This document shows, in pieces, positions 1,516 to 63,084 of a stretch of 64,000 nucleotides of DNA (the first letter of the stretch is position 1; every line of letters starts with the position of its first letter). The DNA comes from Bacteroidales bacterium UBA1800 (GTDB taxonomy: Bacteria > Bacteroidota > Bacteroidia > Bacteroidales > VadinHA17), in contig DCFQ01000103.1 of NCBI GenBank assembly GCA_002319915.1, positions 12,653-76,652 on the forward strand, in the 5' to 3' direction. Under the pieces are notes generated by a model, which ran no database searches, had not been told where the DNA came from, and saw only the letters and a list, made by a program, of their open reading frames with translations. Made by a program: the position numbers and the translations under genes.

Positions 1516-2517
1516 ATGAAACTGAAAAACACAATACTGAGGATCCTCCTCCTGATTACCATATCAGGATTTCTGCCGCACGGTGAAGCGAGGGGACAGG
1601 CAGTCCCGGGGAAGGATGAGAATATCCCGTTCCTGGTCACCTTTGGCAAAGAGGGTCAGACTTCATGGGGAGATGCAAATTTCTACTCAATATTCTTCTT
1701 TACGATACCAAAGGATTTCAACAGGCAGTTTTACATCAAGGTGTTTGACCCGGATGTCGGAGGCGAGAATGATGAGATCCAGGGTGTTTTTGACTCTAAG
1801 ACCAGGTTCTCGGTTTACGGGGGAAAAGGGATAGATCCGGATAAACATATAGAATCGAGGGGGCTGAAGAAGACCGACAACCTGAGGCTGGGCAACCTTC
1901 TGGCTTCGAAGGTTTTCGGGATCGAGCCAAAGTATGACAATAAGTACTATGCTTTCGGGCCTTTCAATCCCACTGAAGGAGAGTACAATGAGAAGTGGAA
2001 AAGCTATATCTTCAAAATTGTCTGTGAGGGCATATCCGGTGACGACGGGAACATGTACCGCTATTTCCTGAGCCGGGATGCAAATAATGATCTGGCAATC
2101 GAGGGAGCCAATGGATTTACATATTCCTATACCCTCAGGCTGTGGAACGACATAAAGAGCGTTTCCCACATTTATCCGTATGTCGACACCGGGATCGTAT
2201 CCATCAAGCTCAGGAACTTTGACTGGGATGATGACGGATCGATTCTCGTGGTCTCGACATATAAGCAGGGTATCCCTGTTCCCATATCAAATGAGGATGA
2301 CTGGAAGGAGGCTGTAATCCTGATACAGCCTGAAGAAATAGGAAAATCCCTTGATTTTCAGTTTCATAAGAAGCAGGATTACCTTGTCAGGAATAATAAC
2401 GTGGTAGTGACGATAGAAAACCAGCGGGGTGATGCCCTCCAGTTCTTCAGCTCACCGATCGGTGGTGTACCGGTCTACCAGCCTGCAGTCATGATCAGGA
2501 AAGTTCAGAAAAAATAA
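1516..2517 (+). CDS. Hypothetical secreted protein (no family recognised)
   Basis: 333-aa ORF with an ATG start and a hydrophobic N-terminus (ILRILLLITISGF). It lies 23 nt after the upstream gene and 11 nt before the downstream gene, so co-transcription is likely. Confidence 0.6.
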   Translation: MKLKNTILRILLLITISGFLPHGEARGQAVPGKDENIPFLVTFGKEGQTSWGDANFYSIFFFTIPKDFNRQFYIKVFDPDVGGENDEIQGVFDSKTRFSVYGGKGIDPDKHIESRGLKKTDNLRLGNLLASKVFGIEPKYDNKYYAFGPFNPTEGEYNEKWKSYIFKIVCEGISGDDGNMYRYFLSRDANNDLAIEGANGFTYSYTLRLWNDIKSVSHIYPYVDTGIVSIKLRNFDWDDDGSILVVSTYKQGIPVPISNEDDWKEAVILIQPEEIGKSLDFQFHKKQDYLVRNNNVVVTIENQRGDALQFFSSPIGGVPVYQPAVMIRKVQKK

Positions 2518-20948: not shown

Positions 20949-22469
20949 TTACAGATCATGACCGCAATAGCTCAGGTTAAAGCTTTTATTGCAAACAGGG
21001 AAATCTGAGATCTCCTGGCTCCTTACCGCAAGCGCAAGGGCCATCCAGTTATGCACCGAAGGATCTTTTACTTTATAATGTACAAGGTTTCCCTTTGCAT
21101 CAGTTTCACATGAATGGACGATCTCTCCCCTCCATCCCTCGACGACCGAAACCGAAAAAGCACCCGGCTTCAATTTATATGAATAGTCAGGCTTCCCGGT
21201 ATCTTTATCCTTGCCTGCCCATACCTCGAGAAGCTCCCTGATGATCCTCAATGATTCCCTTACTTCCAGCTTCCGGATCATTCCCCGTGCCAGAACGTCC
21301 CCGGTTTCGAGTATTGCCGGGTTAACGGCAAAGTTCCTGAAGTACTGAAAAGGATGTGTTTTCCGTACATCCCGGGCCATCCCGCACGTTCGGGCCGCGA
21401 TTCCCACGGCCCCGATCTGCCTTGCCTGCGTGCCGGTGACAGTTCCTATATCCTCGAATCTTGCCAGAACGCTGGGGGAGGAATAGATGCACTCTGTTAT
21501 TCCTGAAAATTGCCTGTCAACAAAATCTGTCATTTTAATGATCTCCGCTGCCGTTTCCTCTGAGAGCGGAAAGTTGCTGCCGCCCGACCTGATCAAGCCT
21601 TTGCCGAACCTGTTACCGCACCACAGCTGGGTGGTATTTATCACCCTGGTCCTTATGGCTTCGCAAACCACCTGGCCGAGCTGATAGGCCACGTCACCGC
21701 AAAGGGCAGCGGTATCGCCGATATGGACTGCGATCCTTTCCATTTCGAGAGCGACGCATCTTTCGATCTGAAGTGCTTCGCCTGGTTCCAGCCCCGTAAG
21801 TGATTCAATAAGCTGGGTATGGGCCAGTGAATGTCCCACTGCCGTATCACCGGCAATTGACTCCGCAAGGATGCACCTCTGCAGGGGAGTGTTTTTCGAA
21901 AGGAACAGATCTTCGGTCCCGCGATGCTGGTAACCCAGCTGGATCTCCAGGTGGAGCACTTTTTCGCCGTTGCAGATGAACCTGAAATGGCCGGGCTCAA
22001 TCACCCCGGCATGCACCGGACCGACACCGACCTCGTGAAGCTCTTCGCTTTCTATCCCGTAGAACGGGTAATTCTCCATGGTCTTTGACTTATCCCGGCG
22101 GTTGTGGGGAAATCTTACGCCTTTCATCCACGGATGCCCCTCAAATACGACACCGAAATTTTCATTTATCTCCCGTTCGAAGACGGAGAGCTGAGGAAAG
22201 AGATCTGCTGCTGACCTGAGCACCGGATTCAGAGTGCCGGTCTCATATGCAGCGACTTCAATATTGCCGGAGGGATCATCTGCCAGAAAGCAGTAAAGCT
22301 TTAAGCTATCCTGGGTTTTAATGCCGTAGTATGCCAGGCAGTGCCTGGCTTCATCCTTTAACCCATCGGTGACAAAGCTGTAAAAATCATCATAACCGGA
22401 GATGGGTATTTCCCTGACCCCCCCTGCAGGATAATTGTTTTTCAGTTTGAAATGAGATGGTTGGTCCAT
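20949..22469 (-). CDS. Hydrogenase-related large subunit (NuoC-like plus NuoD/HycE/HyfG-like) lacking the [NiFe] cysteine motifs
   Basis: GPVHAGVIEPGHFRF and LGYQHRG match group 4 large subunit and NuoD signatures. The L1 and L2 motif positions read SIAGDTAVGH and SFNLSYCGHDL. Confidence 0.85.
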   Translation of the reverse strand: MDQPSHFKLKNNYPAGGVREIPISGYDDFYSFVTDGLKDEARHCLAYYGIKTQDSLKLYCFLADDPSGNIEVAAYETGTLNPVLRSAADLFPQLSVFEREINENFGVVFEGHPWMKGVRFPHNRRDKSKTMENYPFYGIESEELHEVGVGPVHAGVIEPGHFRFICNGEKVLHLEIQLGYQHRGTEDLFLSKNTPLQRCILAESIAGDTAVGHSLAHTQLIESLTGLEPGEALQIERCVALEMERIAVHIGDTAALCGDVAYQLGQVVCEAIRTRVINTTQLWCGNRFGKGLIRSGGSNFPLSEETAAEIIKMTDFVDRQFSGITECIYSSPSVLARFEDIGTVTGTQARQIGAVGIAARTCGMARDVRKTHPFQYFRNFAVNPAILETGDVLARGMIRKLEVRESLRIIRELLEVWAGKDKDTGKPDYSYKLKPGAFSVSVVEGWRGEIVHSCETDAKGNLVHYKVKDPSVHNWMALALAVRSQEISDFPVCNKSFNLSYCGHDL

Positions 22470-27441: not shown

Positions 27442-27565
27442 GCCGGTATGAAAAATACTTTAAGATACGACTGACAATATTTTCCAGGGCTTTTAAGCCC
27501 CTGCTGCCAGGTTTCGATTCAGGATGGTTTTATTGAATGAGAGAGACCATCGGTTTTTTCGAGCC

Positions 27566-27573
27566 CAAAAGTA
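27566..27573 (-). promoter_or_regulatory. Candidate -7 box (TACTTTTG on the minus strand) upstream of the hyf-like operon
   Basis: Plus-strand caaaagta reads TAnnTTTG on the minus strand, about 125 nt upstream of the ATG at 27441. The nearest -33-like TTTG is poorly spaced. Confidence 0.25.
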
Positions 27574-28534: not shown

Positions 28535-31270
28535 ATGACAAGGGAATCATTCAGATCATTCATCGGGGCATTTTGTCTTTCGGTACTGCTTGGCGGGGTA
28601 CCGGGAAAATTATTCTCTCAGTCAAGGGAAATAAAAATTGAAATCGACGGCTCGGAGAAGTACCAGACTATGGATGGATTCGGGGTGAATATCAACCCTG
28701 CATGGTGGTATGACGGGGCCTATACCGATGCTGCCATCGTGCAGCCGGCTATAGATCTTCTTATCGATTCGCTGGGGGCGTCAGTCTTCAGGGTTGTCAT
28801 TGAGGAGATCGACTGGGAGGCTGTAAATGACGATAATGATCCGGATCATTTTAACTGGGACTATTACAATAAAATATTCTCAGGCATAAGGTTTAAAGGT
28901 ATATGGAATACCCTTCATTACCTTAACAAAAGGGGCGTTACAGACAGGATGTGCATCAGCTTCATGGGGGCGCCTCCGTCTGCGCCGCCGCTCTCGAAGC
29001 CTGATCAGCACCTCAGCTGGATGGGCGATAAACCATATTCCATCAGGGAGAATATGGAAGAAGAGCTGGCTGAAACTGAAGCAGCATTCCTGTACTACAT
29101 GCGGAATACCGAGAAGATAAGCTTCAGTCTCGTATCCCCCATGAATGAAACAGACATTATATCGATGACAAGAAATGCCGAGCACCCTGACGGAATCGCA
29201 GAAGGACCGGATGTCCCTGATGCCGCACAGTGGGTGAGAATAATGCATAAGCTGGCATTAAAGCTTGACAAGATCGGAATGAACAATATCAGGTTCGTGG
29301 CCCCCGATGCCGGGGGAGAAAAGCTCTTTTCGGAGGTTATTGATGAAATGGCAAAGGACCAGTACCTGATGGGGAAGATCGTCAGCTGGGGTGTTCATTG
29401 TTATGGCAATGATGCGCGTTCATACTTTGACAGGATAAGGATGTCTCCTTACCCGGTTAAGCCTTACTGGATAACTGAGACTGCACGCATCAGCCATCTC
29501 TTCGGGCAGCTCGACGATAATGCCACATCGTATATTTTCTGGGATGGCTATGACTGCGTTTACCAGCATGGGAGGAGAAATGGATACGGAAGCGTCCCTC
29601 CTAATGACTGGGTCTTTTGGTTCCCCGGGGAGGGCAAGCCCCTGGTTGAATATATCCCTTCATCCCAAAGCTGGAAGCCGCGAAAGACTTTCTGGCAATA
29701 TGCACAGGTCATGAAATTTGTCAGGCCCGGTTCGGTGCGTATCCGGGTTACCGGACAGGACAGCACTTTTTCAGCTTATGCCTTCTGCAATCCCGACGGA
29801 AGCATGGCCATTACAGGTCTGAACACCGGGATCAGGCCTGTCGAACTGACCGGAGTCCTGCAAAACCTGCCTGCCCTCGGAAATATGAAGCTTGTCTATA
29901 CGGATTCTGTCTCCGATATGAAAACGGGAGCGGCAGTCACTTTCCAGGGAAAAAGCTTCAAAGCTTCCGTACCCGCCGGATCTGTTTTTACAATTACCGG
30001 ATATTCGGATAAGCTGCCCGCAGCAATTGGTGCAATAAGGCCTGAACCATCAGGCTGGTATGCCGGGGATATACATGTACACCGCAATTGCGGAGAAGGA
30101 ACACCGGTGCTTGCGGAGAATGAATTTGTTCCCATGATGGAACCAAATGACCTGGCTGTGATATCAGTGCTGGCCGATATGGGAGACGGGGAGGTAAAGT
30201 ACAGCCAGGCCGATCTTCCGAAAATAAACGGGAAGGATGCGATACAATCAAAACCCGGACATATCGTGCACTGGGATGCTGAATGGCATTTTGATCCCTT
30301 TGGAACTACTTTTGAGCATAAGGCCCTCGGAGGCCACATCGTTCTCCTTGGCCTGAATGAAGCTCACACTATATGGGATGAATCGGCTTACAAGGTTGCA
30401 GAATGGGGGAAGAAACAGGATGCCATTACAGGCTTCTGCCATCTCCAGTACCTGAATGATTCAATTCAGAATAACCTCGATTGCTGCATACCAGTCGACT
30501 ATCCTGTGGAGACAGCACTCGGGACAATTGACTTTCTTTCCGAGGATGTCTGGCTCAATGATGCCGCAATCAATGCATACTATAAGATCCTTAACTGTGG
30601 ATTCCGGCCCGGCTTGGCAGCAGGGACAGATTTCCCGTGCAACAACAGCAGGCCATTCGGATCACTTCTTACATACGTTCAGGTTATAGACCAGCCCATG
30701 ACTTACAGGAAATGGATCGAAGGCATCAGGGCCGGAAGGACAGTCGTTTCGACAAATGGCCATGCTGAATTCCTTGAACTTCGCGTGAACGGGTCCGCAT
30801 CACCCGGGGATGAGATAAAATTGGGCAAACGGGGAGTTGTTTCAGCCAATGTTACCTGGACGACGGCGAAAGAGCTTTCAGGGAAGATCGAAATTGTGTG
30901 CAACGGCAAGGTTGTTGCATCAGTAGATGGCACGTCCGGACCCGGTGAGCCGGTGCATTTCAGTAGCCCGATCAGGATCAGTGAAAGCAGTTGGATCTGT
31001 GCAAGAAGAATGGATGCAAACGGTCACCGGACCCACACAGCCCCGGTTTACATCTCATGCAAGGGAAAACCTGTGAGGGCAAGTGAATCAGACGCCAGGT
31101 ACTTTGAAGCCTGGATTGATAATATCCTTAAGAACATCGGACCGGGAGGACCCTGGAGTATCTATTTCACCCACGACCTGGAAACCGTAAGAGCAAGGTA
31201 TCTGAAGGCCAAAGATATATACGAGAGTATAGCTGCAGAGGCGGCAAAAACAAATAAAAACAATAACTGA
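28535..31270 (+). CDS. Secreted fusion of an N-terminal GH30-like glycoside hydrolase region and a C-terminal PHP/CehA-McbA-type metallohydrolase region
   Basis: Signal peptide. The KYQTMDGFGVNINPAWW block is typical of O-glycosyl hydrolase family 30-like proteins. The C-terminal half begins GWYAGDIHVHRNCGEG (PHP-type HxH) with later His/Asp clusters. Confidence 0.6.
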   Translation: MTRESFRSFIGAFCLSVLLGGVPGKLFSQSREIKIEIDGSEKYQTMDGFGVNINPAWWYDGAYTDAAIVQPAIDLLIDSLGASVFRVVIEEIDWEAVNDDNDPDHFNWDYYNKIFSGIRFKGIWNTLHYLNKRGVTDRMCISFMGAPPSAPPLSKPDQHLSWMGDKPYSIRENMEEELAETEAAFLYYMRNTEKISFSLVSPMNETDIISMTRNAEHPDGIAEGPDVPDAAQWVRIMHKLALKLDKIGMNNIRFVAPDAGGEKLFSEVIDEMAKDQYLMGKIVSWGVHCYGNDARSYFDRIRMSPYPVKPYWITETARISHLFGQLDDNATSYIFWDGYDCVYQHGRRNGYGSVPPNDWVFWFPGEGKPLVEYIPSSQSWKPRKTFWQYAQVMKFVRPGSVRIRVTGQDSTFSAYAFCNPDGSMAITGLNTGIRPVELTGVLQNLPALGNMKLVYTDSVSDMKTGAAVTFQGKSFKASVPAGSVFTITGYSDKLPAAIGAIRPEPSGWYAGDIHVHRNCGEGTPVLAENEFVPMMEPNDLAVISVLADMGDGEVKYSQADLPKINGKDAIQSKPGHIVHWDAEWHFDPFGTTFEHKALGGHIVLLGLNEAHTIWDESAYKVAEWGKKQDAITGFCHLQYLNDSIQNNLDCCIPVDYPVETALGTIDFLSEDVWLNDAAINAYYKILNCGFRPGLAAGTDFPCNNSRPFGSLLTYVQVIDQPMTYRKWIEGIRAGRTVVSTNGHAEFLELRVNGSASPGDEIKLGKRGVVSANVTWTTAKELSGKIEIVCNGKVVASVDGTSGPGEPVHFSSPIRISESSWICARRMDANGHRTHTAPVYISCKGKPVRASESDARYFEAWIDNILKNIGPGGPWSIYFTHDLETVRARYLKAKDIYESIAAEAAKTNKNNN

Positions 31271-31280
31271 TATATACGGC

Positions 31281-33131
31281 ATGCCAGTGATGAAAGGCCG
31301 CCTGCCGCTGGTTATATTTTCATTGTTTTTTCTTGCTGTCCAGGGCTTTCATCATGCAGGGAAAAAAGAAAAGCTGCTTGTAATTTGCAGCAGGAGCGAT
31401 TTCGGTATGTATACCCCTGAGATACTCAGGGCAGAGGGCATCACCTGCTTTGACACTGTTTCGCTTTTGAATGCCGGAACCGTTCTAAACCGCTATCATG
31501 CTGTTATACTGTCGTCGGCCCGGGGTGATAAAGCTCTTTATGAAAGTCTGTACAAGTATGTCAGAAAGGGCGGGAAACTGATAGCAGTCATAACACCTTA
31601 CGATGCACCGGAAGAGCTCTTCGGTCGTCTGATGCCCTACAGCACCCGCAGGCATTCTTATGTGAGCATCGATACTGCGTCAGAAACGGGCAAACACCTT
31701 TCAGGGCACCCACTTCAAGTCCATTCCGAAAGTGCATTAAGACTGCCGTATGATTGCATGGTACTGGCCTGGTTTGTAAATCATGCCGGTAAGGAAAAGA
31801 GCGGTCCGGCAGTCATAACAAAAAGGATAGGGAAAGGCACTCTTACTGCCTTCCTGTACAACCTGCCGGCCAATATAGCCCTTACACGGCAGGGTAATCC
31901 GACAGTAGCAGGGATCGAAGAGGACGGCATCCCCGGGTTGCGGGCTATGGACCTCTTCACCGGGGGCTGGGTGGATACTGACTGTAATACCATTAACCAG
32001 GCAGATGAACAGATGCATCTCCTTTCGCAGATAATTGAAAGCACGGCATTTCCCGATCTGCCTCTTCCCCGTATCGGTTACTTTCCCGACACGCTGAAAT
32101 GTCTCGTTACCCTGACAAACGACGGCGAATTCAGAAATGAAAACGATTTTGAAGCCCAGTTCAGGGATATCGATTCAGCTGGAGCAACAATGTCCCTGTA
32201 TGTGATGGAGACAGGCGGTGTATCGCGTGAATGGGCCCGGCGATGGACCGGCAGGGGTTTCGAAATTGCAGGCCATCCCGATAATACCAAAGAGGCCGGA
32301 GCTCCCGTATGGGCACACGCTGACAGTGTGCTGGCATGCAAAATTAAGGATATTTCAGCCCTTTACGGGCTTGACATGAAGACCGTTGTCAATCACTGGT
32401 TTGTATGGTGCGGAACAGATGCCACCGGGAAACAGGAATTCTCCGCCCAGGCACAAATCGAGGCAAAACGCGGAATACTTCTGGATGCAAACTATGCGCA
32501 CTACGATAACAATTCATCGTCGGGTCATTTTCTTGGAATCATGGGCGCCGGGCAGGGGAATTTTACCGGAAGCGGACTCCCGATGAGGTTCATTTCCTCA
32601 ACCGGCCAGGTGGCAGGTATTTGGCAGCACCTGAACAATGTCTACGATCAGCAGTATAATGAAAACCACGATCCCGACGGTTTTTTTATGGCCTTCAGGG
32701 GACTCATGGACAGAAGCATCGATAATGATATCTGGTCGTACATAAGCATTAAATCGCACAATGATGAGTATTACTTTACAAGGACACATTTATTGAAAAT
32801 GATCTCTTATGCAAAAAGCAGGGGTACACCTGTATGGACTGCCGCCCGGCTTGCGGATTTCCTTGTTAGACGTAACAGCGCCGTGATCTCCGGCCTGAGG
32901 TTTCGCAACGATAAGCTGTCATTCTCTTTTGAAACGGTCCCCCATTCCCGCGATAATCCCAGCATTATGATCCCCTCTGCTTTTAATGGTAAGCTTATTA
33001 AGCAGATAAAAGTCAATGGCAGGGCAGAACGGCTTGTCGGAAAAAATCTCAGGGGGAGGAATTTTGTCTTCCTTGTATTTCCTGAAGGCGGAAGAGCAGT
33101 CGTATCTGCTGATTACGTTAAACCGGACTGA
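31281..33131 (+). CDS. Hypothetical secreted protein with a weakly polysaccharide-deacetylase-like central region
   Basis: 616 aa with a signal-like N-terminus, 10 nt after the preceding gene. The blocks LVTLTNDGEF and GFEIAGHPD faintly resemble CE4/NodB motifs. The assignment is tentative. Confidence 0.45.
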   Translation: MPVMKGRLPLVIFSLFFLAVQGFHHAGKKEKLLVICSRSDFGMYTPEILRAEGITCFDTVSLLNAGTVLNRYHAVILSSARGDKALYESLYKYVRKGGKLIAVITPYDAPEELFGRLMPYSTRRHSYVSIDTASETGKHLSGHPLQVHSESALRLPYDCMVLAWFVNHAGKEKSGPAVITKRIGKGTLTAFLYNLPANIALTRQGNPTVAGIEEDGIPGLRAMDLFTGGWVDTDCNTINQADEQMHLLSQIIESTAFPDLPLPRIGYFPDTLKCLVTLTNDGEFRNENDFEAQFRDIDSAGATMSLYVMETGGVSREWARRWTGRGFEIAGHPDNTKEAGAPVWAHADSVLACKIKDISALYGLDMKTVVNHWFVWCGTDATGKQEFSAQAQIEAKRGILLDANYAHYDNNSSSGHFLGIMGAGQGNFTGSGLPMRFISSTGQVAGIWQHLNNVYDQQYNENHDPDGFFMAFRGLMDRSIDNDIWSYISIKSHNDEYYFTRTHLLKMISYAKSRGTPVWTAARLADFLVRRNSAVISGLRFRNDKLSFSFETVPHSRDNPSIMIPSAFNGKLIKQIKVNGRAERLVGKNLRGRNFVFLVFPEGGRAVVSADYVKPD

Positions 33132-47027: not shown

Positions 47028-47161
47028 TCCTGATCAGGATATATCTTATTTATTCAGGGAAATTCCTGAGATTTTATTCTAAAAGCCCCACTGATCTAAA
47101 ATATTGGTTTAAATTTACTTAGCTCTTTCTCATTCTGATCAACCCTAAATTGCATACTGCT

Positions 47162-48985
47162 ATGGAAAGACATTTTTTAATGGATATTTCCAACGGAGGT
47201 GTAATCTACCAGGTATTTTATATGCTCGCATTTCTAACAGTGTATTTGATACTTGTTTATGAAGGCTACAGGAGAAAATTCCCTTTGCTGACCTGGGTCC
47301 TGATCCTTGCCAGCGTACAGTTTGCGTCTATAATAGGTACAAAGCTTTTTTCCTATTCCTGGGAGGAGTGGGGAATGATGATCCGGACCCATTCCATCAT
47401 TCCCAACAGGGAAAAGTCATTGCTCGGATGCGCAATCTCAGCTTCAGTTATCTTTCTGGCGGTCAGGAGCCTGTTCAGGTTCAGGCATGATGTCTGGGAT
47501 TCATGTGCGGTTGCCTTCCCGGTTGGGGTCTCGCTTATGACCACTGGATGCTTTTTTTACGGCTGCTGTTATGGGACAGAGTCGCATTTGCCCTGGGCAG
47601 TTCAGTATCCCGTAATGTCCCTTGCTCACTATCACCAGTTTAAATCGGGCCTTATCACTTACGGGGATGCTTTTTCCCTCCCTGTCCACCCCGTTCAGCT
47701 GTATGCCACCCTGGGCGGCATTGCGGTGACATGTGTTGTCCTGCTTTTCCGCCGGAAATGGAAAGCATCCGGGAATCTCCTTCTGTTTTCCGCAATACTT
47801 TTCCTCGTGATGAGGTTTGTGGTTGATTTTTTCAGGGATCCCGGCACAAACAAAATCGGGGGAGCAATGCTTGGGATATTCAAAGAGGTTCAATGGGCCT
47901 ACCTGCTGAGCGCTTCTCTTCTTACAGTAATTTTGATCATCCGTGAAAGGAATTTCAGGGAACAGCCTGTCATTGCCGGCGGAAACATGCCTTCACTAAG
48001 TTTCCAGATAATTTACCTGCTTGTGCTGGTCTCGGTGTTCGCATCTTTGAGAAACTGGTTCAGGCTGCCTGAGATCATTGCCGTCAACTTTGCATTGCTG
48101 CCTGCAGTTTTCCTTTCAGGGAAAGAGGTTGTCACGACCTTTGCAGCCTCGAAATATAAATGGGCATACGCTTCAATCCTGATCCTCCCGGTGTTCCTCA
48201 TGAGTCAGACCATTCCAGGGATCGACACCACGCAGTCAAAGAAAGCAAGGACTTACCATTCGATTGGCGCCGGGTTTGCCACCGGCCATTACCAGGATGA
48301 AAGAATGACCTTTCGCGGGTCGGGGTGCGATATGACCAGCGATTACAGGTATTTCAACCATAAATATACGGCTGAGGCAATAGGCTACAGCTTTACCAGG
48401 GAGGATCCGGAGCAATTTAAGGCCACAACCTTCGGTGCGGATATTTTCTTTGGAAGGTACAGCCAGCTGAGCCTGTCAGACAACGTAGTCACTGACATTA
48501 ATCTCTTTGGGATCAGTCCATACATACGCTACGATTCTAAATGGATAGGCATCGGGGGAGGCTTTAATACAGGCAATCTCGTATATACAACAGGTGATAC
48601 GAGGAAGGAAACTTCAGAGGTGCCTCCAGGGGCCGGATATTTTAAAACGGTGATATTTCCCCGTTTTTATTTGAGAGTCGGGCCCAGGAACATCCTGTTT
48701 GCAGATTTTCATATTGCAGACCAGTTCCCGGCATCTTCGCCCGGATTGGGGTTCCAGACGGGCTTCGGAACAGGGTTGGGCCTTAAGAACGGTTTCAGCC
48801 TGCGATACGGCTTTTCATTCCTCGATAGGGGTTCATATTATATATCCTCCTTCATCCCCATCAAAGACCGGATAGTCCTGGAACCCTTGTTCCTGTGGAA
48901 GGGAGGAAATTCAACTTCCAGTTATCCCGGTGTTCCTGAAAAGCAGTTTTCAGTTGGCCTGTCATACCGCTTTGATAAAAAGTGA
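47162..48985 (+). CDS. Lgt-family (prolipoprotein diacylglyceryl transferase-like) membrane domain fused to extra TM helices and a roughly 250-aa beta-rich C-terminal domain
   Basis: The track start 47150 is TTG and the ATG is at 47162. Lgt-like motifs are GCFFYGCCYGTES..PWAV, VHPVQLYA and MRFVVDFFRD. The C-terminal third is Gly/Tyr/Phe-rich with an alternating pattern. Confidence 0.6.
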   Translation: MERHFLMDISNGGVIYQVFYMLAFLTVYLILVYEGYRRKFPLLTWVLILASVQFASIIGTKLFSYSWEEWGMMIRTHSIIPNREKSLLGCAISASVIFLAVRSLFRFRHDVWDSCAVAFPVGVSLMTTGCFFYGCCYGTESHLPWAVQYPVMSLAHYHQFKSGLITYGDAFSLPVHPVQLYATLGGIAVTCVVLLFRRKWKASGNLLLFSAILFLVMRFVVDFFRDPGTNKIGGAMLGIFKEVQWAYLLSASLLTVILIIRERNFREQPVIAGGNMPSLSFQIIYLLVLVSVFASLRNWFRLPEIIAVNFALLPAVFLSGKEVVTTFAASKYKWAYASILILPVFLMSQTIPGIDTTQSKKARTYHSIGAGFATGHYQDERMTFRGSGCDMTSDYRYFNHKYTAEAIGYSFTREDPEQFKATTFGADIFFGRYSQLSLSDNVVTDINLFGISPYIRYDSKWIGIGGGFNTGNLVYTTGDTRKETSEVPPGAGYFKTVIFPRFYLRVGPRNILFADFHIADQFPASSPGLGFQTGFGTGLGLKNGFSLRYGFSFLDRGSYYISSFIPIKDRIVLEPLFLWKGGNSTSSYPGVPEKQFSVGLSYRFDKK

Positions 48986-49490: not shown

Positions 49491-50420
49491 ATGATCAGGT
49501 TTCCTTCCTCACCCATTATCCCGGAAAAAATTCTCTCCGGACGGTATCTTAAATCCGCACTTACTCTTTGCCTCTTGCTAATGACAATTTTTGATGTCAA
49601 CAGCGTGGGGAAGAGTAAAACTACTCCATATCGCGACCTGGAAAAGACTATAAGGGAAAAGTACGATTCCCGTGCAGTATTTACGTGGGACCAGTACAAA
49701 GAATTGCTGAAGGAGCTGAAAGATCCCAAATTCAGGGTGCTGCCCCTGCACGAAATGGCAGATACCTACGACTCCACCAGGGTTATTGTCGGCCTCAGGC
49801 ACGATGTGGACTTTAATCCCTTCAAGGCCCTCGAGATGGCCAGGATCGAACATCTTTACGGAATAAGGGCCACCTATTTCCTCCTGGCAACAGCGGAGTA
49901 CAGCGGGGTGTTCATGGGTTCAAAACTGGTCCGGTCCAAAGGGTTGAAAGCCCTTTACAGGGACCTGTATGAGACCGGGGCCGAGATCGGAATACATAAC
50001 GACATGCTTACGGTTATGATACTTTACGATATCGACCCGTACAAGTTCAACCACGACGAACTGGCATTTTATAATTCTATCAGGATACCTGTTTACGGCT
50101 CAGCTGCCCATGGATCGGAGATCGCAAAGAAGACTGTTCCCAATTTCCAGATATTTTCGGACTTTTCCGCGAAGGACTCGGTTTCATACCTCGGCAGGAA
50201 GTACCCTCTCGGAAAACAGAGCCTGAAGGAATGCGGATACCAGTATGAGGCATATTTCATTAAGCATAACATTTATTTGTCAGATTCAGGCGGAAAGTGG
50301 CACAATGCCGAGGGTGTTTCGGGAGTCCTGCAGCGACTGAGGGAAAGTGTCCCTGGTGACCGGATCGAAATTCTTATGCATCCCGAATGGTGGGGCAAGA
50401 CTGAACAAAAAACCCCCTGA
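49491..50420 (+). CDS. Hypothetical protein with divergent polysaccharide-deacetylase-like motifs
   Basis: VGLRHDVDFNP, ATYFLL, GAEIGIHND and AAHGSE resemble the CE4-like deacetylase fold. The assignment is tentative. Confidence 0.45.
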   Translation: MIRFPSSPIIPEKILSGRYLKSALTLCLLLMTIFDVNSVGKSKTTPYRDLEKTIREKYDSRAVFTWDQYKELLKELKDPKFRVLPLHEMADTYDSTRVIVGLRHDVDFNPFKALEMARIEHLYGIRATYFLLATAEYSGVFMGSKLVRSKGLKALYRDLYETGAEIGIHNDMLTVMILYDIDPYKFNHDELAFYNSIRIPVYGSAAHGSEIAKKTVPNFQIFSDFSAKDSVSYLGRKYPLGKQSLKECGYQYEAYFIKHNIYLSDSGGKWHNAEGVSGVLQRLRESVPGDRIEILMHPEWWGKTEQKTP

Positions 50421-53433: not shown

Positions 53434-53492
53434 ATATCATACCGGCTCTGTGGCAATTGGGGAAAAAGGTGGTTAAAAAGAAGACTATTAAT

Positions 53493-54608
53493 ATGCTGAA
53501 GGCTTTTAGAAACGCTGTCATCTTTACCGGAAAAGAAAAGATTACCGGCAAGGCAATAATTGTTAAAGACGGGTATATTACAGAACTTATTGATCCTATT
53601 AGCATTCCGGAAAATGCTGAAGTCATTGACTGCCATGGTACAAACCTGGCTCCCGGACCAATCGACCTCCAGATAGCAGGCGGCGGCGGGTACCTCATTT
53701 CTGCCCATCCTACAGCCGATGCCGTTGAAGCGATGATATCCAGCCTGGTTTCAGAAGGTACTACCGGGTTTCTCATTGTGCTGCCAACCAATACATTCGA
53801 AGTTTACAGGGCGGTCATTGAAACAGTAAAGAAGAATACGCACCCTGCACTTCTCGGGCTCCATCTCGAGGGCCCCTATATAAGCCATCACCAGAGGGGA
53901 GCCCATATGCGCGAACTGATACGCACACCCGAGGTCGGCGAGCTGAAGGAGTTGATTTCAGGCGCGGAAGGTGTGATCAAGATGATGACTGTCGCTCCGG
54001 AGGTTTGTTCTCCTGATGTGATCAGGCTGCTGAACGACAGCGGAATAGTCGTGGCAGCCGGTCACAGCAATGCAACTTTCAGGGAAGCAGCAGAAGGTTT
54101 TCGCCGGGGTATCCGGACCACCACCCACCTTTTCAACGCGATGTCGCAGCTTCATCACCGTGACCCGGGACTGCCGGGGGCGGCCTTCCTTACAGCGGAT
54201 GCACATGCGAGCATCATTGCCGATGGCATTCATGTTGACTACAATGTCGTAAGGATCGCAAAGAAGCTGATGAATGAGAGGCTGTTCCTTGTCTCAGATG
54301 CCGTGGAGGAGTGTTTTACGGGCCCGTACAGGCATGTTAAAAAGGAGGACAGGTTCACCTTGCCCGACGGCACACTGTCGGGTTCAAAGCTTTCGATGCT
54401 GAAGGCTCTGGCTAACTGTGTGAAACATGCCGGAATTGCTCCCGATGAAGCAGTCAGGATGGCAACCGCATACCCGGCTGAAGTGCTTGGGATCCCTGAC
54501 AGGGGCCGAATTGCTCCCGGCTGCAGGGCTGACCTGGTAGGCTTTTCCGATGATTTCAGGCTGAAGCTTGTCTGCCTTGGAGGCAACATTACTATGTCTG
54601 GCTTTTAA
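53493..54608 (+). CDS. nagA: N-acetylglucosamine-6-phosphate deacetylase
   Basis: The track start 53457 is TTG and the ATG is at 53493. Motifs are PGPIDLQIAGGGG, HLEGPYIS, AGHSNAT and THLFNAMS. Confidence 0.9.
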   Translation: MLKAFRNAVIFTGKEKITGKAIIVKDGYITELIDPISIPENAEVIDCHGTNLAPGPIDLQIAGGGGYLISAHPTADAVEAMISSLVSEGTTGFLIVLPTNTFEVYRAVIETVKKNTHPALLGLHLEGPYISHHQRGAHMRELIRTPEVGELKELISGAEGVIKMMTVAPEVCSPDVIRLLNDSGIVVAAGHSNATFREAAEGFRRGIRTTTHLFNAMSQLHHRDPGLPGAAFLTADAHASIIADGIHVDYNVVRIAKKLMNERLFLVSDAVEECFTGPYRHVKKEDRFTLPDGTLSGSKLSMLKALANCVKHAGIAPDEAVRMATAYPAEVLGIPDRGRIAPGCRADLVGFSDDFRLKLVCLGGNITMSGF

Positions 54609-54662
54609 CCAGCAACCAGCAACCAGTAACCAGAAACCAGTAACCAGTAACCAACAACCAGC
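54607..54662 (+). repeat. Eight tandem heptamers (aaccagc x2, aaccagt, aaccaga, aaccagt x2, aaccaac, aaccagc) filling the nagA-ROK intergenic gap
   Basis: The array starts inside the nagA stop codon (taa at 54606-54608) and ends 2 nt before the ATG at 54665. It is 8 x 7 = 56 nt, read directly. Confidence 0.85.
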
Positions 54663-54664
54663 CT

Positions 54665-55624
54665 ATGCCCGTCTTAGGAGTAGATATTGGGGGAACAAAG
54701 CTTGCCGCCGCACTGATCTGCGAAGACGGAACTATCATACGGAAAGAATACTGGGAGCTGGGCGGAAGGAAAGGAACTGAGGTTGGGAGTTTTGTGACAG
54801 ATATGATCCGGATGTTCAATTCCGGGGAAAGCCAAACCGGTGCAGTCGAATCGATTGGGATATCAGTTCCCGGCATCAGCTACCCGCAGACAGGCAGGGT
54901 CTGGGTCCCGAACATCGAGGGTTGGACTGATTACCCGCTCATGGATGAGGTCAGAATGGCGGTCGGCAAGATTCCGGTGACGATCGACAACGACCGGGCC
55001 TGCTATATTCTTGGAGAAGCCTGGAAAGGCAAAGCTGTTGGTTGCAGGGACGCAATCTTTATCGGTGTCGGAACAGGTATCGGTGCCGGTATCCTGGTTA
55101 ACGGGAGCGTTCTGAGGGGAAGTTCCGGCATAGCCGGAGCCATCGGCTGGCTGGCGCTTGAACCGCATTTCCTGGAAAAGTATATAGCCTGTGGCTGTTT
55201 TGAATATAATGCTTCGGGGGAGGGAATAGCACGCGTGGCGCGGGAAATGCTCAAGGAGAACATATCTTATTCCGGGATCTTAAGGGAGACCGGGCCGGAA
55301 AGGATTTCTGCCCGCACCGTATTCGAGGCCTTTGAAAAGCACGACTGGCTGGCTGAAAAGGTGTTGCTGCACTGCGTGGAATTCTGGGGAATGGCTGCTG
55401 CCAACCTGGTAAGCCTTTTTAACCCCCGGATGATAATTTTCGGCGGAGGGATCTTCGGACCAGCCGGGAAACTTTTGGCCAAAATAAAGGAAGAAGCTGA
55501 AAAATGGGCGCAGCCTGTCAGCATGAAGGAGGTCGGGTTTGAAGTTTCAGGTCTTGGCGGAGATGCCGGAATTTACGGTGCAGGTTACCTGGCTTTAAAG
55601 CGTCTTGCAGACGAAATCCAATGA
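54665..55624 (+). CDS. ROK-family sugar kinase with a degenerate zinc motif
   Basis: VLGVDIGGTKLAAAL (phosphate-1), DNDRACYILGE and GVGTGIGAGI. The ExGH / CxCGxxGC region reads GAIGW...ACGCFE. Confidence 0.8.
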   Translation: MPVLGVDIGGTKLAAALICEDGTIIRKEYWELGGRKGTEVGSFVTDMIRMFNSGESQTGAVESIGISVPGISYPQTGRVWVPNIEGWTDYPLMDEVRMAVGKIPVTIDNDRACYILGEAWKGKAVGCRDAIFIGVGTGIGAGILVNGSVLRGSSGIAGAIGWLALEPHFLEKYIACGCFEYNASGEGIARVAREMLKENISYSGILRETGPERISARTVFEAFEKHDWLAEKVLLHCVEFWGMAAANLVSLFNPRMIIFGGGIFGPAGKLLAKIKEEAEKWAQPVSMKEVGFEVSGLGGDAGIYGAGYLALKRLADEIQ

Positions 55625-56799
55625 CAGATCAGAACTACAGAAAAAGTACCGTCTTTATTTCTGCCTGCGCGGGCATGCTTCTTTTCGGCATCTGCCTCAT
55701 ATCCCTGGGTTCGCTGGCACCCGGGCTGAGGGAGAAATTCAATCTTTCCGACCTTGGATCCGGCGCTCTTTTCTCGATCCTGCCGTTCGGGATCCTCATC
55801 GGATCGCTGGTTTTCGGGCCGATAGCTGACAGCAGGGGCTACAGGTTACTGATCTCTTCCTCCTGCATTATCCTGGGTGCCGGATTTGAGGGCATTGCTT
55901 TCGCTGCAACCCCGGGCATCCTCAAATTGTTCATTTTTCTCATTGGCATAAGCGGCGGGGCAATTAACGGTGCGACAAATGCCCTGGTATCGGATATAAG
56001 CGAAAGCGGCAAAGGAGCAAACCTGAGCCTTCTCGGAGTCTTTTTCGGAATTGGTGCCCTGGGAATGCCCCTCCTTCTGGGCGCACTGGAAAGCAGCCTG
56101 AACTTTGAATCGATCACCGCTGCGATAGGTATCCTCTCGGTAATGACCGGACTGGCATTCCTGCTCATCAGGCTGCCTGCACCGAAGGCGAAGCAGGGAT
56201 TTCCAATTAAAAACGTACTGAAACTCCTTAAGGATAAAGCATTGCTTCTTATTGCGCTCTTCCTGTTCTTCCAGAGCAGCATCGAGGGTATCCTCAACAA
56301 CTGGACAACCTCATTCATGATCAAGCATGTCAGCCTGCCTGGTAATATCGCCCTGTTCACACTTTCCCTGTTTGTGACAGGCATGACGGTGATGAGACTT
56401 CTTACCGGCACAATCCTGAGAAATTATCCGGTAAAGAATCTTATGATTATATCTTTTGCATTGATCCTGGCCGGGATCATCGCAGCCGGATCAGGCATGT
56501 CGCAGGCAGTCGTAATGACGGCATTCATGGCAATAGGGGCCGGCGTGGCAAGCGGCTTCCCGGTAATGCTGGGGATGGTAGGAGAACGATATGCCGCCGT
56601 TTCAGGTACAGCATTCAGCTTTGTCCTCTTTATCGCCCTTATTGGGAATACCTCTCTTAATTATGCCATGGGACTGATCTCACAAAGATTCGGGATCCGT
56701 CATTTCACAACATTGATCTTTATCATTGCAGTTATCCTGATAATGCTTTTCTTTATCATTGTTAAAAACTTTAAAAGAGAAAATTCAAATTCAGTGTAA
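55621..56799 (+). CDS. MFS transporter
   Basis: 392 aa with about 12 predicted TM segments and an MFS loop GPIADSRGYR. It overlaps the ROK stop (ATGA). Confidence 0.85.
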   Translation: MTDQNYRKSTVFISACAGMLLFGICLISLGSLAPGLREKFNLSDLGSGALFSILPFGILIGSLVFGPIADSRGYRLLISSSCIILGAGFEGIAFAATPGILKLFIFLIGISGGAINGATNALVSDISESGKGANLSLLGVFFGIGALGMPLLLGALESSLNFESITAAIGILSVMTGLAFLLIRLPAPKAKQGFPIKNVLKLLKDKALLLIALFLFFQSSIEGILNNWTTSFMIKHVSLPGNIALFTLSLFVTGMTVMRLLTGTILRNYPVKNLMIISFALILAGIIAAGSGMSQAVVMTAFMAIGAGVASGFPVMLGMVGERYAAVSGTAFSFVLFIALIGNTSLNYAMGLISQRFGIRHFTTLIFIIAVILIMLFFIIVKNFKRENSNSV

Positions 56800-56806
56800 G
56801 TCATAT

Positions 56807-56874
56807 TTAACCGCAAAGTCCGCAAAGTTTGTCCCTTTTGTTCTTCGTGTGTACTTAGTGTGCTTTGCGGTTAA
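56807..56874. repeat. Short copy of the palindromic element with the same perfect 12-nt arms ttaaccgcaaag / ctttgcggttaa
   Basis: Arms at 56807-56818 and 56863-56874, identical to those at 44163 and 44295. The interior tacttagtgtgctttgcgg resembles 50490-50507. Confidence 0.7.
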
Positions 56875-56894
56875 AAATTTCAAAAAAAGAAACT

Positions 56895-57656
56895 ATGCTG
56901 GCAAAACAATGGCTTGAGAATGCCCGCGGCATAATGACGCGGATCGAGGAGACTCAGATGGAGAACATAGGGAAAGCAGCTGAGATGATGGCCGCCACTA
57001 TCGAACAAAAAAGGTGGGTACACACCTTCGGATGCGGACATGCAACCCTTCCGATCGAGGAAATGTATCCCCGCATCGGGGGGTTTGTAGGGTTCCATCC
57101 TATGGTAGAACTGCCGCTGACATTCTTTACCAGGATCACCGGGGAGATGGGAGTCCGTCAGTTCGTATTCCTTGAACGTATTGAGGGCTACGGCAATGAG
57201 ATTATGAAAAGCTATGACTTTGATCCGAGGGATATCATGTGGCTCTTTTCCCATTCGGGGATCAACAATGTCAATATCGATGTGGCGCTTGAAGCCAAAA
57301 AGAGAGGGATGAAAGTGATTGTTTTCGGCTCTGCCGAAGCTGCAAAGGGAAGAAAAACCAGGCACTCGAGCGGGAAAACAATATTCGACATAGCCGATGT
57401 GATCGTTGATACCTGTGCACCGCTTGAAGATGCATCAGTGGTCCTGAAAAACCATCGTGACAAGATCGGGCCGGTATCGACCATGGCGTTCGTGACATGT
57501 GTCTGGATGACAATTACCACGGTTGCCGAGATCCTTGCTGACAGGGGTGTAAAGCTCTATATTCATCCTTCACACAATGTTCCGGGTGATGAAACTGCCC
57601 GCGAACGGCTCGATGAGGCGCTCACCGAATACAAAAACAGGATCGCGGGGGTCTGA
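56895..57656 (+). CDS. Single SIS-domain protein (UPF0309-like sugar-phosphate isomerase/binding fold)
   Basis: The track start 56865 is TTG and lies inside the repeat. The ATG is at 56895. The blocks VHTFGCGHA..., LFSHSGINNVNIDVALEAKKRGMKVIVF and the C-terminal half are consistent with a SIS domain. Confidence 0.65.
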   Translation: MLAKQWLENARGIMTRIEETQMENIGKAAEMMAATIEQKRWVHTFGCGHATLPIEEMYPRIGGFVGFHPMVELPLTFFTRITGEMGVRQFVFLERIEGYGNEIMKSYDFDPRDIMWLFSHSGINNVNIDVALEAKKRGMKVIVFGSAEAAKGRKTRHSSGKTIFDIADVIVDTCAPLEDASVVLKNHRDKIGPVSTMAFVTCVWMTITTVAEILADRGVKLYIHPSHNVPGDETARERLDEALTEYKNRIAGV

Positions 57657-57697
57657 CGTAAAGTAGGCGGATGGAAGTGCAGTGCAGGCCGGATAAC

Positions 57698-58960
57698 TCA
57701 GTGCCTCTCCGTGCCTTCTCCTGATCTCCCCTGTGTAAGTTTCTCCTTTATCCATTCCTCGCTGAAGGCCGAATGCATTATTGTCTCATGCTGCTTTACG
57801 CTCCAGGAGTACGTCACGTGGATGAGCCCGTCCCTGCCCTGGATTATTGTCGGGTAGGAAAATGAACCTTCGCCCATGTTCTTTTCCTCGAGATATCTGG
57901 TCCATTTCCAGGTTCTGCCTTCATCATCCGAAAGACTGACGGCAAGGCGGTACCTGTCCTCCTCAAGGTCGTTGTATGCCATTATCCAGTCGCCGTTACA
58001 GAGCGCGATGGCATAAACGCTCGATCCGGGATTGGGGATCCCGGATTTCCGTGCATAGCTCCAGGAATAACCTTCATCGGTTGATTCGCTGAGCATTATC
58101 CTGCCGGGGAAATCGCCGTTGTCCCTCATGAATGCCACGATCGTCCCGTCTTTTTTCCTTATGAGGGCAGGCTGAATATTTCCCCTTCCGACTATCGGCC
58201 GGCATGCTTTCCATGTATTACCGCCGTCTTCAGAAACGGCAACCAGAGAGAGGCTGAATCCGTCAGAATAGAGGGGCAGAAGAAGCTTACCGTCCGGCAG
58301 CAGCAATGGCTGCACCCTCGTCATCCACCCGGTTTGCCGTTTCGCCGGATCCCCGGCAGCCGCAGCTATCATCTGCTCATATCTGGGGGCATAGGAGGCA
58401 GTCACTACATCAGGGTACTTTATCTCGTTAAATTGCCTGGTGATCGTTTCCTGGAATTCCTTCCCGGGTTTAAGGATGATATCATCCTGCCAGCTCCAGA
58501 CCGGCGGCCCGGAATTCAGATAATCGACAGATATCCTGGTCCTCAGAAGCGAGTTTTCCCATCTGCCGGCAAGTGTGGCTATCCAGACCAAATGCAGGCT
58601 GTGAAGTGGATCGATGAACAGGACCGGATTAAGATCCGGAAATTCGGGGGTGTCGGCAAGAATAAAGGGCTCGCTCCACCCCGGGGCGCCCTTTTTCAGC
58701 CTCGATCCCATGATCACCACATTATCCGCTTCCCGTTCGCCGGAGCCCTGGTACCAGCAGCACAGCAAGTCTCCGTTACCCAGTTCGACAACAGAGCTGC
58801 TATGAACATGAAGGGCAATCGCCGGGAATATTGCCTCAGATTTGAATTCAGCCTTCACCTTATTTGCTTCCTGCGCGGAGACATTTACCGTACCGGCAGA
58901 TATTGCCAGGACGGACAGGATCATACCGGCTGACGCTGATGTCAGGTTTTTATTGGACAT
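57698..58960 (-). CDS. Secreted BNR/Asp-box sialidase-like protein (BNR_2-type six-bladed propeller)
   Basis: The track start 59008 is GTG. The ATG at 58960 gives a signal peptide (MSNKNLTSASAGMILSVLAISA). Three Asp-boxes are SEDGGNTW, STDEGYSW and SDDEGRTW. The HVHSSSVVELGNGDLLCCWYQGSGERE block is also present. Confidence 0.7.
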   Translation of the reverse strand: MSNKNLTSASAGMILSVLAISAGTVNVSAQEANKVKAEFKSEAIFPAIALHVHSSSVVELGNGDLLCCWYQGSGEREADNVVIMGSRLKKGAPGWSEPFILADTPEFPDLNPVLFIDPLHSLHLVWIATLAGRWENSLLRTRISVDYLNSGPPVWSWQDDIILKPGKEFQETITRQFNEIKYPDVVTASYAPRYEQMIAAAAGDPAKRQTGWMTRVQPLLLPDGKLLLPLYSDGFSLSLVAVSEDGGNTWKACRPIVGRGNIQPALIRKKDGTIVAFMRDNGDFPGRIMLSESTDEGYSWSYARKSGIPNPGSSVYAIALCNGDWIMAYNDLEEDRYRLAVSLSDDEGRTWKWTRYLEEKNMGEGSFSYPTIIQGRDGLIHVTYSWSVKQHETIMHSAFSEEWIKEKLTQGRSGEGTERH

Positions 58961-59020
58961 AATGAACAAATGTAGCAAACATGGATCAATAACCAACTCC
59001 GGGTTCACGAAAGCCTGGCA

Positions 59021-60634: not shown

Positions 60635-60641
60635 ATGAGGA

Positions 60642-61919: not shown

Positions 61920-61964
61920 GACAATCTGGTTGAATTATTAATAGTCTGGGTTTATGATCGGGAT

Positions 61965-63083: not shown

Positions 63084-63084
63084 T

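Follow-up and report, generated by a model that had tools for sequence, protein, structure and literature searches.

The open reading frame at positions 20949-22469 of a 64-kb stretch of DNA (the window; 64,000 nucleotides of contig DCFQ01000103.1 of Bacteroidales bacterium UBA1800) raises the question of what a relative of the large subunit of membrane-bound [NiFe]-hydrogenases may do when the cysteines that hold the nickel-iron centre have been replaced. The initial annotation, made from the letters of this stretch, had described the encoded protein as HycE-like and had reported that both ligand-binding CxxC motifs, L1 in the N-terminal and L2 in the C-terminal region, were altered. The analysis presented here assigns the protein, on the basis of its sequence, to the Ehr (energy-converting, or Ech-, hydrogenase-related) complexes as their large subunit, EhrL, encoded alongside the small subunit EhrS and the membrane subunits EhrA-D. 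The complex is descended from a group-4 membrane [NiFe]-hydrogenase and is not itself a hydrogenase. Loss of the NiFe ligands as such is already known as the defining trait of the named Ehr class; the locus moreover belongs to a large Bacteroidota variant with added iron-sulfur (Fe-S) losses that go beyond the other Ehr clades examined.

In the translated reading frame, L1 reads ESIAGDTAVGH (residues 203-213, nt 21831-21863), and residues 496-506 (nt 20952-20984) read SFNLSYCGHDL, with L2 represented by NLSYCGHDL (498-506). The C-terminal end, NKSFNLSYCGHDL, reaches nt 20952 and is directly followed by the stop codon. These motif readings and positions had been given exactly in the initial annotation, and the landmark segments of HycE-type subunits, GPVHAGVIEPGHFRF, LGYQHRG and EMERIAVH, were likewise recovered. 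Pfam domains PF00329 (NuoC-like, residues 41-119) and PF00346 (NuoD-like) were detected. In a phmmer search of all PDB chains, the best matches were HycE of Escherichia coli (7z0s_E, 9.7e-33) and MbhL of Pyrococcus furiosus (6cfw_L, 2.5e-30), with NuoD/Nqo4 chains ranking lower (1e-22 or weaker; 2e-22 for Nqo4), in agreement with the proposed HycE-type likeness. An AlphaFold2 model (pTM 0.81) reconfirmed the HycE/NuoCD fold, its best Foldseek match being again HycE (7z0s_E, TM 0.72).

The register of both motifs was established in two alignment checks. In the PDB search, EhrL 'laesiagdtavghsla' was placed under HycE 'lsdrvcgicgfahsta' and MbhL 'laermcgicsfshn', and EhrL 'nlsy' under HycE 'dpcy'. 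The second check was an exhaustive phmmer search of EhrL against 1.84 billion representatives, of which the top 150 proteins were inspected; cysteines in the L1/L2 columns were found in three of these, all true hydrogenases. The Cys-bearing proteins (these three; Brocadia and Bacillota loci) carry ER[IV]CG[VA]C..SH and NKSF[EN]LCYSCTD[LR] in the same columns as the EhrL motifs, and the register is fixed because the context DFPxxNKSF.L.Y...D is common to EhrL and these relatives. The replacements are thereby Cys to Ala206 and Cys to Thr209 in L1, and Cys to Ser500 and Cys to Gly503 in L2, with Cys502 offset by one position. The alignments to HycE, MbhL and the nearest Cys-bearing hydrogenases thus agree with what had been deduced by eye for both motifs. 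Because all four canonical ligand cysteines are absent, the known mode of assembling a NiFe centre is not available to EhrL; this earlier conclusion is supported, and it is not new.

Unusual motifs of this kind could in principle stem from sequencing errors or from the decay of a pseudogenised hydrogenase operon, and the unusual motifs are all that speaks for such an origin. Sequencing error is excluded because the identical EhrL protein is present on contigs of three independent sequencing runs; together with the consistent register this also disposes of the two objections, mis-registration and misread bases, that had been foreseen at the outset. The reading frames are intact, and some 80 species, with identities of 49-67%, share the order of the six genes.

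The conservation of the replaced motifs argues in the same direction. When a single genome of each species was scanned, at least 584 species-level EhrL relatives were obtained, nearly all from Bacteroidota, including Bacteroidales (among them Rikenellaceae, Lentimicrobiaceae and Prolixibacteraceae), Cytophagales, Chitinophagales, Saprospiraceae and Flavobacteriales, with a few Ignavibacteria as the members from outside this phylum. Column counts were made for 80 of the Bacteroidota orthologues (49-67% identical). Their consensus is E-[SN]-I-A-G-D-[TS]-x-x-G-H for L1 and SDFPxCNKSF[ND]LSYCGxDL for L2. In L1, D208 was found in 81/81 and G207 in 79/81 sequences, and a cysteine occurred at position 206 in 1/81 and at position 209 in 0/81; in L2, S500, Y501, G503 and D505 were each present in 80/80 and C502 in 76/80. 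Conservation of at least 90% was observed for 9 of the 11 L2 positions versus 32% of positions across the whole of EhrL, and for 18 of the 20 positions of the beta1-beta2 loop (HEVGVGPxHAGxIEPGHFRF); E158 is present in 80/80. The replacement motifs are therefore among the most conserved parts of EhrL and have not decayed. In the search of representatives, 537 clusters (50% identity) scored below an E-value of 1e-30, and 147 of the top 150 representative clusters, extending down to 33% identity, were Cys-less and showed GD(S/T) and NLSY.G.DL where the motif regions were present, some entries being fragmentary or frameshifted. C502 and H504 vary in this wider family, to S/A and to N/F/Y, respectively. 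Since conservation is higher in the replaced motifs than elsewhere in EhrL, and given the three-run identity and the synteny, both the sequencing-error and the pseudogene readings are refuted, and their residual probability is practically negligible.

A second explanation would regard the complex as a quinone-reducing module akin to NuoD that represents an intermediate stage in the evolution of complex I. The NCBIfam NuoD models are the top named matches of EhrL, and Ehr has been put forward as a 'missing link' to complex I, a proposal cited in PMC4758237. The NuoD score is 144.7 bits, however, far below the cut-off of 360, and HycE and MbhL are closer to EhrL than Nqo4 is (1e-32 versus 2e-22). 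The initial annotation had asked whether the histidine and tyrosine of the NuoD quinone site might be present in place of the NiFe ligands, and this check was negative: Tyr87 of Thermus thermophilus Nqo4 aligns to Gly207 of EhrL, which was the glycine of CGxC in the ancestor, while the counterpart of His38 is Ile157 (ungapped HMMER alignment) or Pro159 (gap set by eye), neither of which is a histidine. EhrS, moreover, has no equivalent of the NuoB cluster N2, and NuoA, J, E, F or G genes are missing from the operon. A NuoD-type quinone site was therefore rejected, and a quinone-reducing module must be considered highly improbable.

The assignment to Ehr is consistent with the six-gene set (large, small, NuoH-like, HyfE-like and antiporter-like subunits), with the Cys-less large subunit, and with a continuity of EhrL with Cys-less relatives that takes precedence over NuoD. 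Ehr complexes are defined by a large subunit that has no NiFe-ligating cysteines (PMC6349859, PMC10284858, PMC4378227) and are close to group 4f (PMC10284858). They have deliberately been left out of HydDB as homologues that do not metabolise H2 (PMC5037454), the subunits of Geobacter have been named EhrA, B, C, D, L and S (PMC7894505), and their function was still unknown as of 2025 (PMC12342949). The features that distinguish group 4 [NiFe]-hydrogenases, i.e., the L1 motif RxCGxCxxxH, the L2 motif DPCxxCxx(H/R) and the complete set of four proximal cysteines in the small subunit, are missing here, and hyp maturation or endopeptidase genes were found neither among the open reading frames of at least 200 aa in the window nor in the flanks of 80 orthologous loci. 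Orthologues of EhrL carry the public names 'Ni,Fe-hydrogenase III large subunit' (JGI) and 'NADH-quinone oxidoreductase subunit C' (NCBI). Given the missing ligands, both names are misleading and should be dropped for these genes. One feature typical of Ehr from other phyla, an EhrS with a full chain of three clusters, is absent; this is a variant feature that lies outside the published definition.

EhrS is a fusion of a NuoI/HycF-like ferredoxin domain (residues ~1-100) and a NuoB/HycG-like domain (~126-251). In alignments with MbhJ and HycG, residues D136, C139, D203 and N233 sit at the positions of the four cysteines of the proximal [4Fe-4S] cluster, from which a NiFe centre would be supplied. 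Among 75 Bacteroidota orthologues, for which all EhrS columns were counted, these residues were present in 70, 55, 72 and 73 sequences, respectively, and a cysteine was found at position 136, 203 or 233 in none of the 75. In the ferredoxin domain, alignment to HycF identified C50 as the 'CP' cysteine of motif I and C67, C70 and C73 as the CxxCxxC of motif II, each of which was present in 75/75; motif I lacks its first three cysteines, and K77 stands in place of the fourth cysteine of motif II. Because of the usual cross-ligation in 2x[4Fe-4S] ferredoxins, one complete four-Cys [4Fe-4S] site is left. Residues 61-98 align with residues 92-130 of T. thermophilus Nqo9, placing C67, C70, C73 and K77 on Nqo9 98, 101, 104 and 108, and we take the remaining cluster to be of the N6b type. 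Judged by its ligands, the Bacteroidota EhrS has thus lost the proximal cluster (the N2 equivalent) and the distal, surface-side NuoI-type cluster, with one cluster remaining, and no continuous Fe-S wire leads to the old pocket. No description of this loss of two of the three clusters in Bacteroidota Ehr was encountered in the accessible literature. A hydrogenase with non-canonical ligands was considered and rejected, the L1/L2 ligands and three of the proximal-cluster cysteines being replaced.

The position of these losses within Ehr was determined with a comparison set that consisted of orthologues from metagenome-assembled genomes and one Sulfurospirillum locus, and that did not include the Geobacter and Nitrospira sequences themselves. 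The motif (A/S)GD(T/S)...NKSFNLSY(C/S/A)GxDL is common to the Ehr large subunits of the PVC (Planctomycetota-Verrucomicrobiota-Chlamydiota) group, Deltaproteobacteria, Acidobacteria, Chloroflexota and Campylobacterota. In the clade of PVC, Deltaproteobacteria and Acidobacteria, which is 39-47% identical to the EhrL of the window, the small subunits follow the pattern CxxxCxxCxxxCP...CxxCxxCxxxCP...GGCNACE...GACAISGG...PGCPPHP, all nine scored cysteines were present in 63 of 76 of them, and the A-B-C-D-L-S gene order was found in 57 of 80 PVC/Deltaproteobacteria loci. The Sulfurospirillum Ehr (a single locus, from a genome scan) keeps the four proximal cysteines and has a NuoI-like motif I of apparently three cysteines (CxxCxxxCP). 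The four are also kept in the more distant SGD[ST]/NLSY[AS]GNDL subfamily, which comes from Binatia, Acidobacteria and Chloroflexota and whose small subunits match the query in the NuoB-like part only. Because the other examined clades keep the proximal cysteines, their loss is specific to the Bacteroidota clade and five Planctomycetota loci. In the small subunits of these five, proximal cysteines are lost, apparently in independent events, and the NuoI-like cysteines are kept; one of them (L192, Isosphaeraceae) has the replacement motif 'GGDNS' (GDNS) as in the Bacteroidota clade. The Planctomycetota losses could reflect convergence or transfer.

These patterns bear on the possibility that the complex is still a redox-driven pump, as other Ehr complexes presumably are, in which the remaining cluster would take electrons from ferredoxin, flavodoxin or an unlinked oxidoreductase and pass them to an acceptor in the remodelled pocket or close to it. 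All four cysteines of this cluster are invariant in 75/75 orthologues, and in the sister Ehr clades, whose L1/L2 motifs are the same, the full three-cluster wire is preserved, which suggests that the ancestral function of Ehr was a redox function; for other Ehr complexes, a partnership with formate dehydrogenase has been proposed (PMC6349859, PMC7894505). Against a pump of this kind stands the loss of three of the four proximal ligands in all 75 orthologues, along with that of the surface-side NuoI cluster, and no oxidoreductase gene is conserved beside the operon. Going by the geometry of complex I, the position of the retained cluster in homologous complexes would also be too far from the pocket for electrons to pass directly. 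We therefore judge a redox-driven pump to be unlikely.

Alternatively, the former NiFe pocket may have been repurposed for non-redox chemistry or for ligand binding coupled to the ion-motive force. Polar residues of the pocket (E158, D208, T/S209, S500, Y501 and D505) are near-invariant and remain conserved although the wire is gone, and an analogy would be the hydration of CO2 that DAB complexes and the NDH-1/CupA of cyanobacteria carry out. However, C502 and H504 vary in the wider family, so that no conserved metal site is evident, there is no accessory gene and no known candidate substrate, and the pocket segments of the AlphaFold2 model are unreliable. Such a repurposing is accordingly regarded as rather improbable. 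A broader version, according to which electron transfer has been abandoned altogether and both the pocket (E158, D208, T209, S500, Y501, C502, D505) and the D136/C139/D203/N233 site have been reused, appears somewhat less doubtful, while still being held as a minor possibility; such reuse may serve the sensing of ions or ligands, or a chemistry of non-redox type that is linked to the ion-motive force.

The membrane arm of the complex presents a different picture from the peripheral arm. EhrL and EhrS are encoded by the last two of six tightly packed genes in the order EhrA-B-C-D-L-S, spanning 27441-20169 on the minus strand (Table 1), and this order is kept in essentially all 80 Bacteroidota loci. 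Every NCBIfam hydrogenase and Nuo model stayed below its curated cut-off across the operon proteins, and the best PDB match of EhrD was MbsH (6u8y_H, 1e-29). When all flanking open reading frames of the 80 loci were clustered, every further gene family was confined to at most 15 of them, and formate dehydrogenase, NuoEF or hyp were absent from these flanks as conserved operon neighbours.

Table 1. The Ehr operon of the window, in order of transcription.
Gene product	Coordinates	Strand	Domain and family evidence
EhrA, HyfB/NuoL-like antiporter-like subunit, 664 aa	25447..27441	-	PF00361 + PF00662; NCBIfam 'hydrogenase 4 subunit B' at 533 bits, below cut-off of 667
EhrB, NuoH/HycD-like subunit, 304 aa	24531..25445	-	PF00146
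EhrC, HyfE-like small membrane subunit, 204 aa	23910..24524	-	NCBIfam NF008556 'hydrogenase 4 membrane subunit', 2.7e-11, below cut-off
EhrD, HyfF/NuoN-like antiporter-like subunit, 476 aa	22476..23906	-	PF00361; NCBIfam 'hydrogenase 4 subunit F' models below cut-off
EhrL, large subunit, 506 aa	20949..22469	-	Fifth gene of operon; N-terminal NuoC-like domain fused to NuoD/HycE-like domain
EhrS, small subunit, 251 aa	20169..20924	-	PF01058; NCBIfam HycF/NuoI-like matches at N-terminus

The charged residues that characterise ion pathways in this superfamily are conserved throughout. In EhrA, E141, K220, K297, H340, H344, K348 and E403 are invariant or nearly so, as are E123, K209, K288, H323, K327 and E382 of EhrD in 78-79 orthologues, the alignment with MbsH supporting these positions. 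E124, E132, E184, R187, D192, E198, E204, D209 and E266 of EhrB are invariant in 73-74 orthologues, with D191 in 72/73, and E152 of EhrC was found in 76/76. Because these motif-defined residues of the membrane arm are invariant or nearly so, the ion-translocation machinery is under strong purifying selection.

The genetic organisation shows some variation beyond the conserved order. An extra gene of ~2 kb is located between EhrA and EhrB in six of the Bacteroidota operons, and it probably encodes a third antiporter-like subunit, the clustering of open reading frames having placed about nine surplus members in the antiporter-like family. On three contigs from Veillonellaceae, Sporomusaceae and Negativicutes, two operons occur in tandem, with large and small subunits side by side. 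Upstream of EhrA in the window, the 250-nt leader contains TACTTTTG at 27566-27573 (-), which matches the Bacteroides -7 promoter consensus TAnnTTTG, and a short GC-rich hairpin, CAGGGGC-TTAAAA-GCCCTG, at ~27485-27503 (-).

Taken together, the identity of EhrL as an Ehr subunit, the cofactor losses, the conserved ion machinery and a translocator that works independently of redox chemistry make up the explanation that we favour as a whole, and we hold it to be reasonably probable. According to this explanation, ions would still be moved by the complex, and the power for this movement would not come from electron transfer to the former catalytic pocket. The most likely role would be that of a Mrp-like secondary cation/proton translocator, in which the conserved peripheral arm would be kept for gating or as a plug, and the one cluster left in EhrS would be structural or redox-sensing, having no wire to the old active site. 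Taken on its own, the idea that protons or cations are translocated in a Mrp-like manner, with no redox reaction at the old site to drive this, is put forward tentatively, with some doubt outweighing the confidence that we place in it.

Several points weigh against this explanation. No experiment exists for any Ehr complex. The four cysteines of the remaining cluster and the polar pocket residues are strictly conserved, and this would fit just as well with the retention of a catalytic or redox function. The AlphaFold2 monomer has a pLDDT below 50 at EhrL residues 130-182 and 483-506, exactly the segments that form the pocket. The assignment of the remaining cluster as N6b rather than N6a depends on the alignment coordinates to Nqo9 and on the ligand numbering applied to it. 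Finally, the operon contains no further open reading frames that could encode MrpB, E, F or G.

If electron transfer has indeed been abandoned altogether and the remodelled sites reused, the complex would be the first representative of the complex I superfamily that is 'redox-free' and still carries a peripheral arm. Ehr is widespread in many phyla and often noted in metagenome papers, and a clade that has the pocket and the ion apparatus while the Fe-S wire is gone constitutes a natural experiment, which points to a role of the conserved pocket residues in coupling or gating and not in the acceptance of electrons. The Bacteroidota thereby offer a tractable test of whether the complex I architecture works without redox chemistry.

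The remainder of the window resembles an ordinary Bacteroidales chromosome, with genes for Der, Era, SecDF, TatA, LolD, MutS, Lgt, efflux systems and the utilisation of sugars and sialic acid. No Rfam family matched anywhere in the window, and matches in a scan for sigma-70 promoters and terminators were no more frequent than in shuffled sequence. An amino-sugar/sialic-acid cluster (53457-63936) encodes a NagA-like amidohydrolase, an ROK kinase, a transporter of the major facilitator superfamily, a SIS-domain protein, a BNR sialidase-like protein, a sodium:solute symporter and an N-acetylglucosamine 2-epimerase, and includes two open reading frames with no Pfam match (61965-63083 and 63085-63936). 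In a 611-aa open reading frame at 47150-48985 (+), the match to Lgt is limited to the first 262 residues, the C-terminal ~350 having no Pfam match. Large open reading frames at 28535-33131 (+), 1516-2517 (+) and 49491-50420 (+) have little or no family assignment; among these, a protein of 911 aa has only a weak match to a GH30 C-terminal domain, and those of 616, 333 and 309 aa have none.

Comparison with known systems delineates what the complex shares and what it has given up. The best sequence and fold matches are the group 4 hydrogenases (HycE/HycG/HycF, 7z0s; the membrane-bound hydrogenase of P. furiosus, 6cfw; Hyf-like enzymes of Brocadia and Bacillota), with which it has in common the HycE-type NuoC-NuoD fusion, the Hyf-type membrane subunits, the loop GPxHxGxxEPGHFR and the C-terminal DFPxxNKSF. 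The NiFe ligands, the proximal cluster and the C-terminal extension of these enzymes are all missing from the protein of the window, and neither hyp nor hycI genes are located in its vicinity. The MBS/Mbx sulfane reductase of Pyrococcus (6u8y) is likewise an ion-translocating derivative of group 4 that has no NiFe site, and its MbsH is the closest PDB match of EhrD; MbsL and MbsJ match more weakly than HycE/MbhL and MbhJ. In the MBS structure three [4Fe-4S] clusters are reportedly kept, and polysulfide is said to be reduced at the proximal cluster. Catalysis of this type was rejected for the window complex, the proximal ligands being gone in its EhrS.

The Q-module of complex I (NuoB/C/D/H/I; Nqo4/6/9) shares the folds, the layout of NuoH-like and antiporter-like subunits and the Glu/Lys chain of the membrane arm, whereas in the operon of the window Tyr87 and N2 have no equivalent, a single NuoI cluster is left of two, and genes for an N-module or for NuoA/J are missing. 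With the Mrp-type Na+/H+ antiporters, the likeness consists of two MrpA/D-like subunits in which the Lys/Glu pathways are intact, and of the apparent lack of a complete electron wire. Mrp complexes carry MrpB/E/F/G and have no NuoB/C/D/H/I-like peripheral module, and the likeness is functional only, implying no membership of that family. The systems of the same class are the Ehr complexes of Geobacter sulfurreducens (GSU0739-0745, EhrA-D/L/S), Nitrospira, Margulisbacteria and the Candidate Phyla Radiation, which resemble the window operon in their set of subunits and in a large subunit from which both CxxC motifs are missing. In the other Ehr clades examined, EhrS keeps the proximal cysteines and, where these could be scored, the NuoI-type clusters, whereas the EhrS of the window keeps the ligands of a single cluster.

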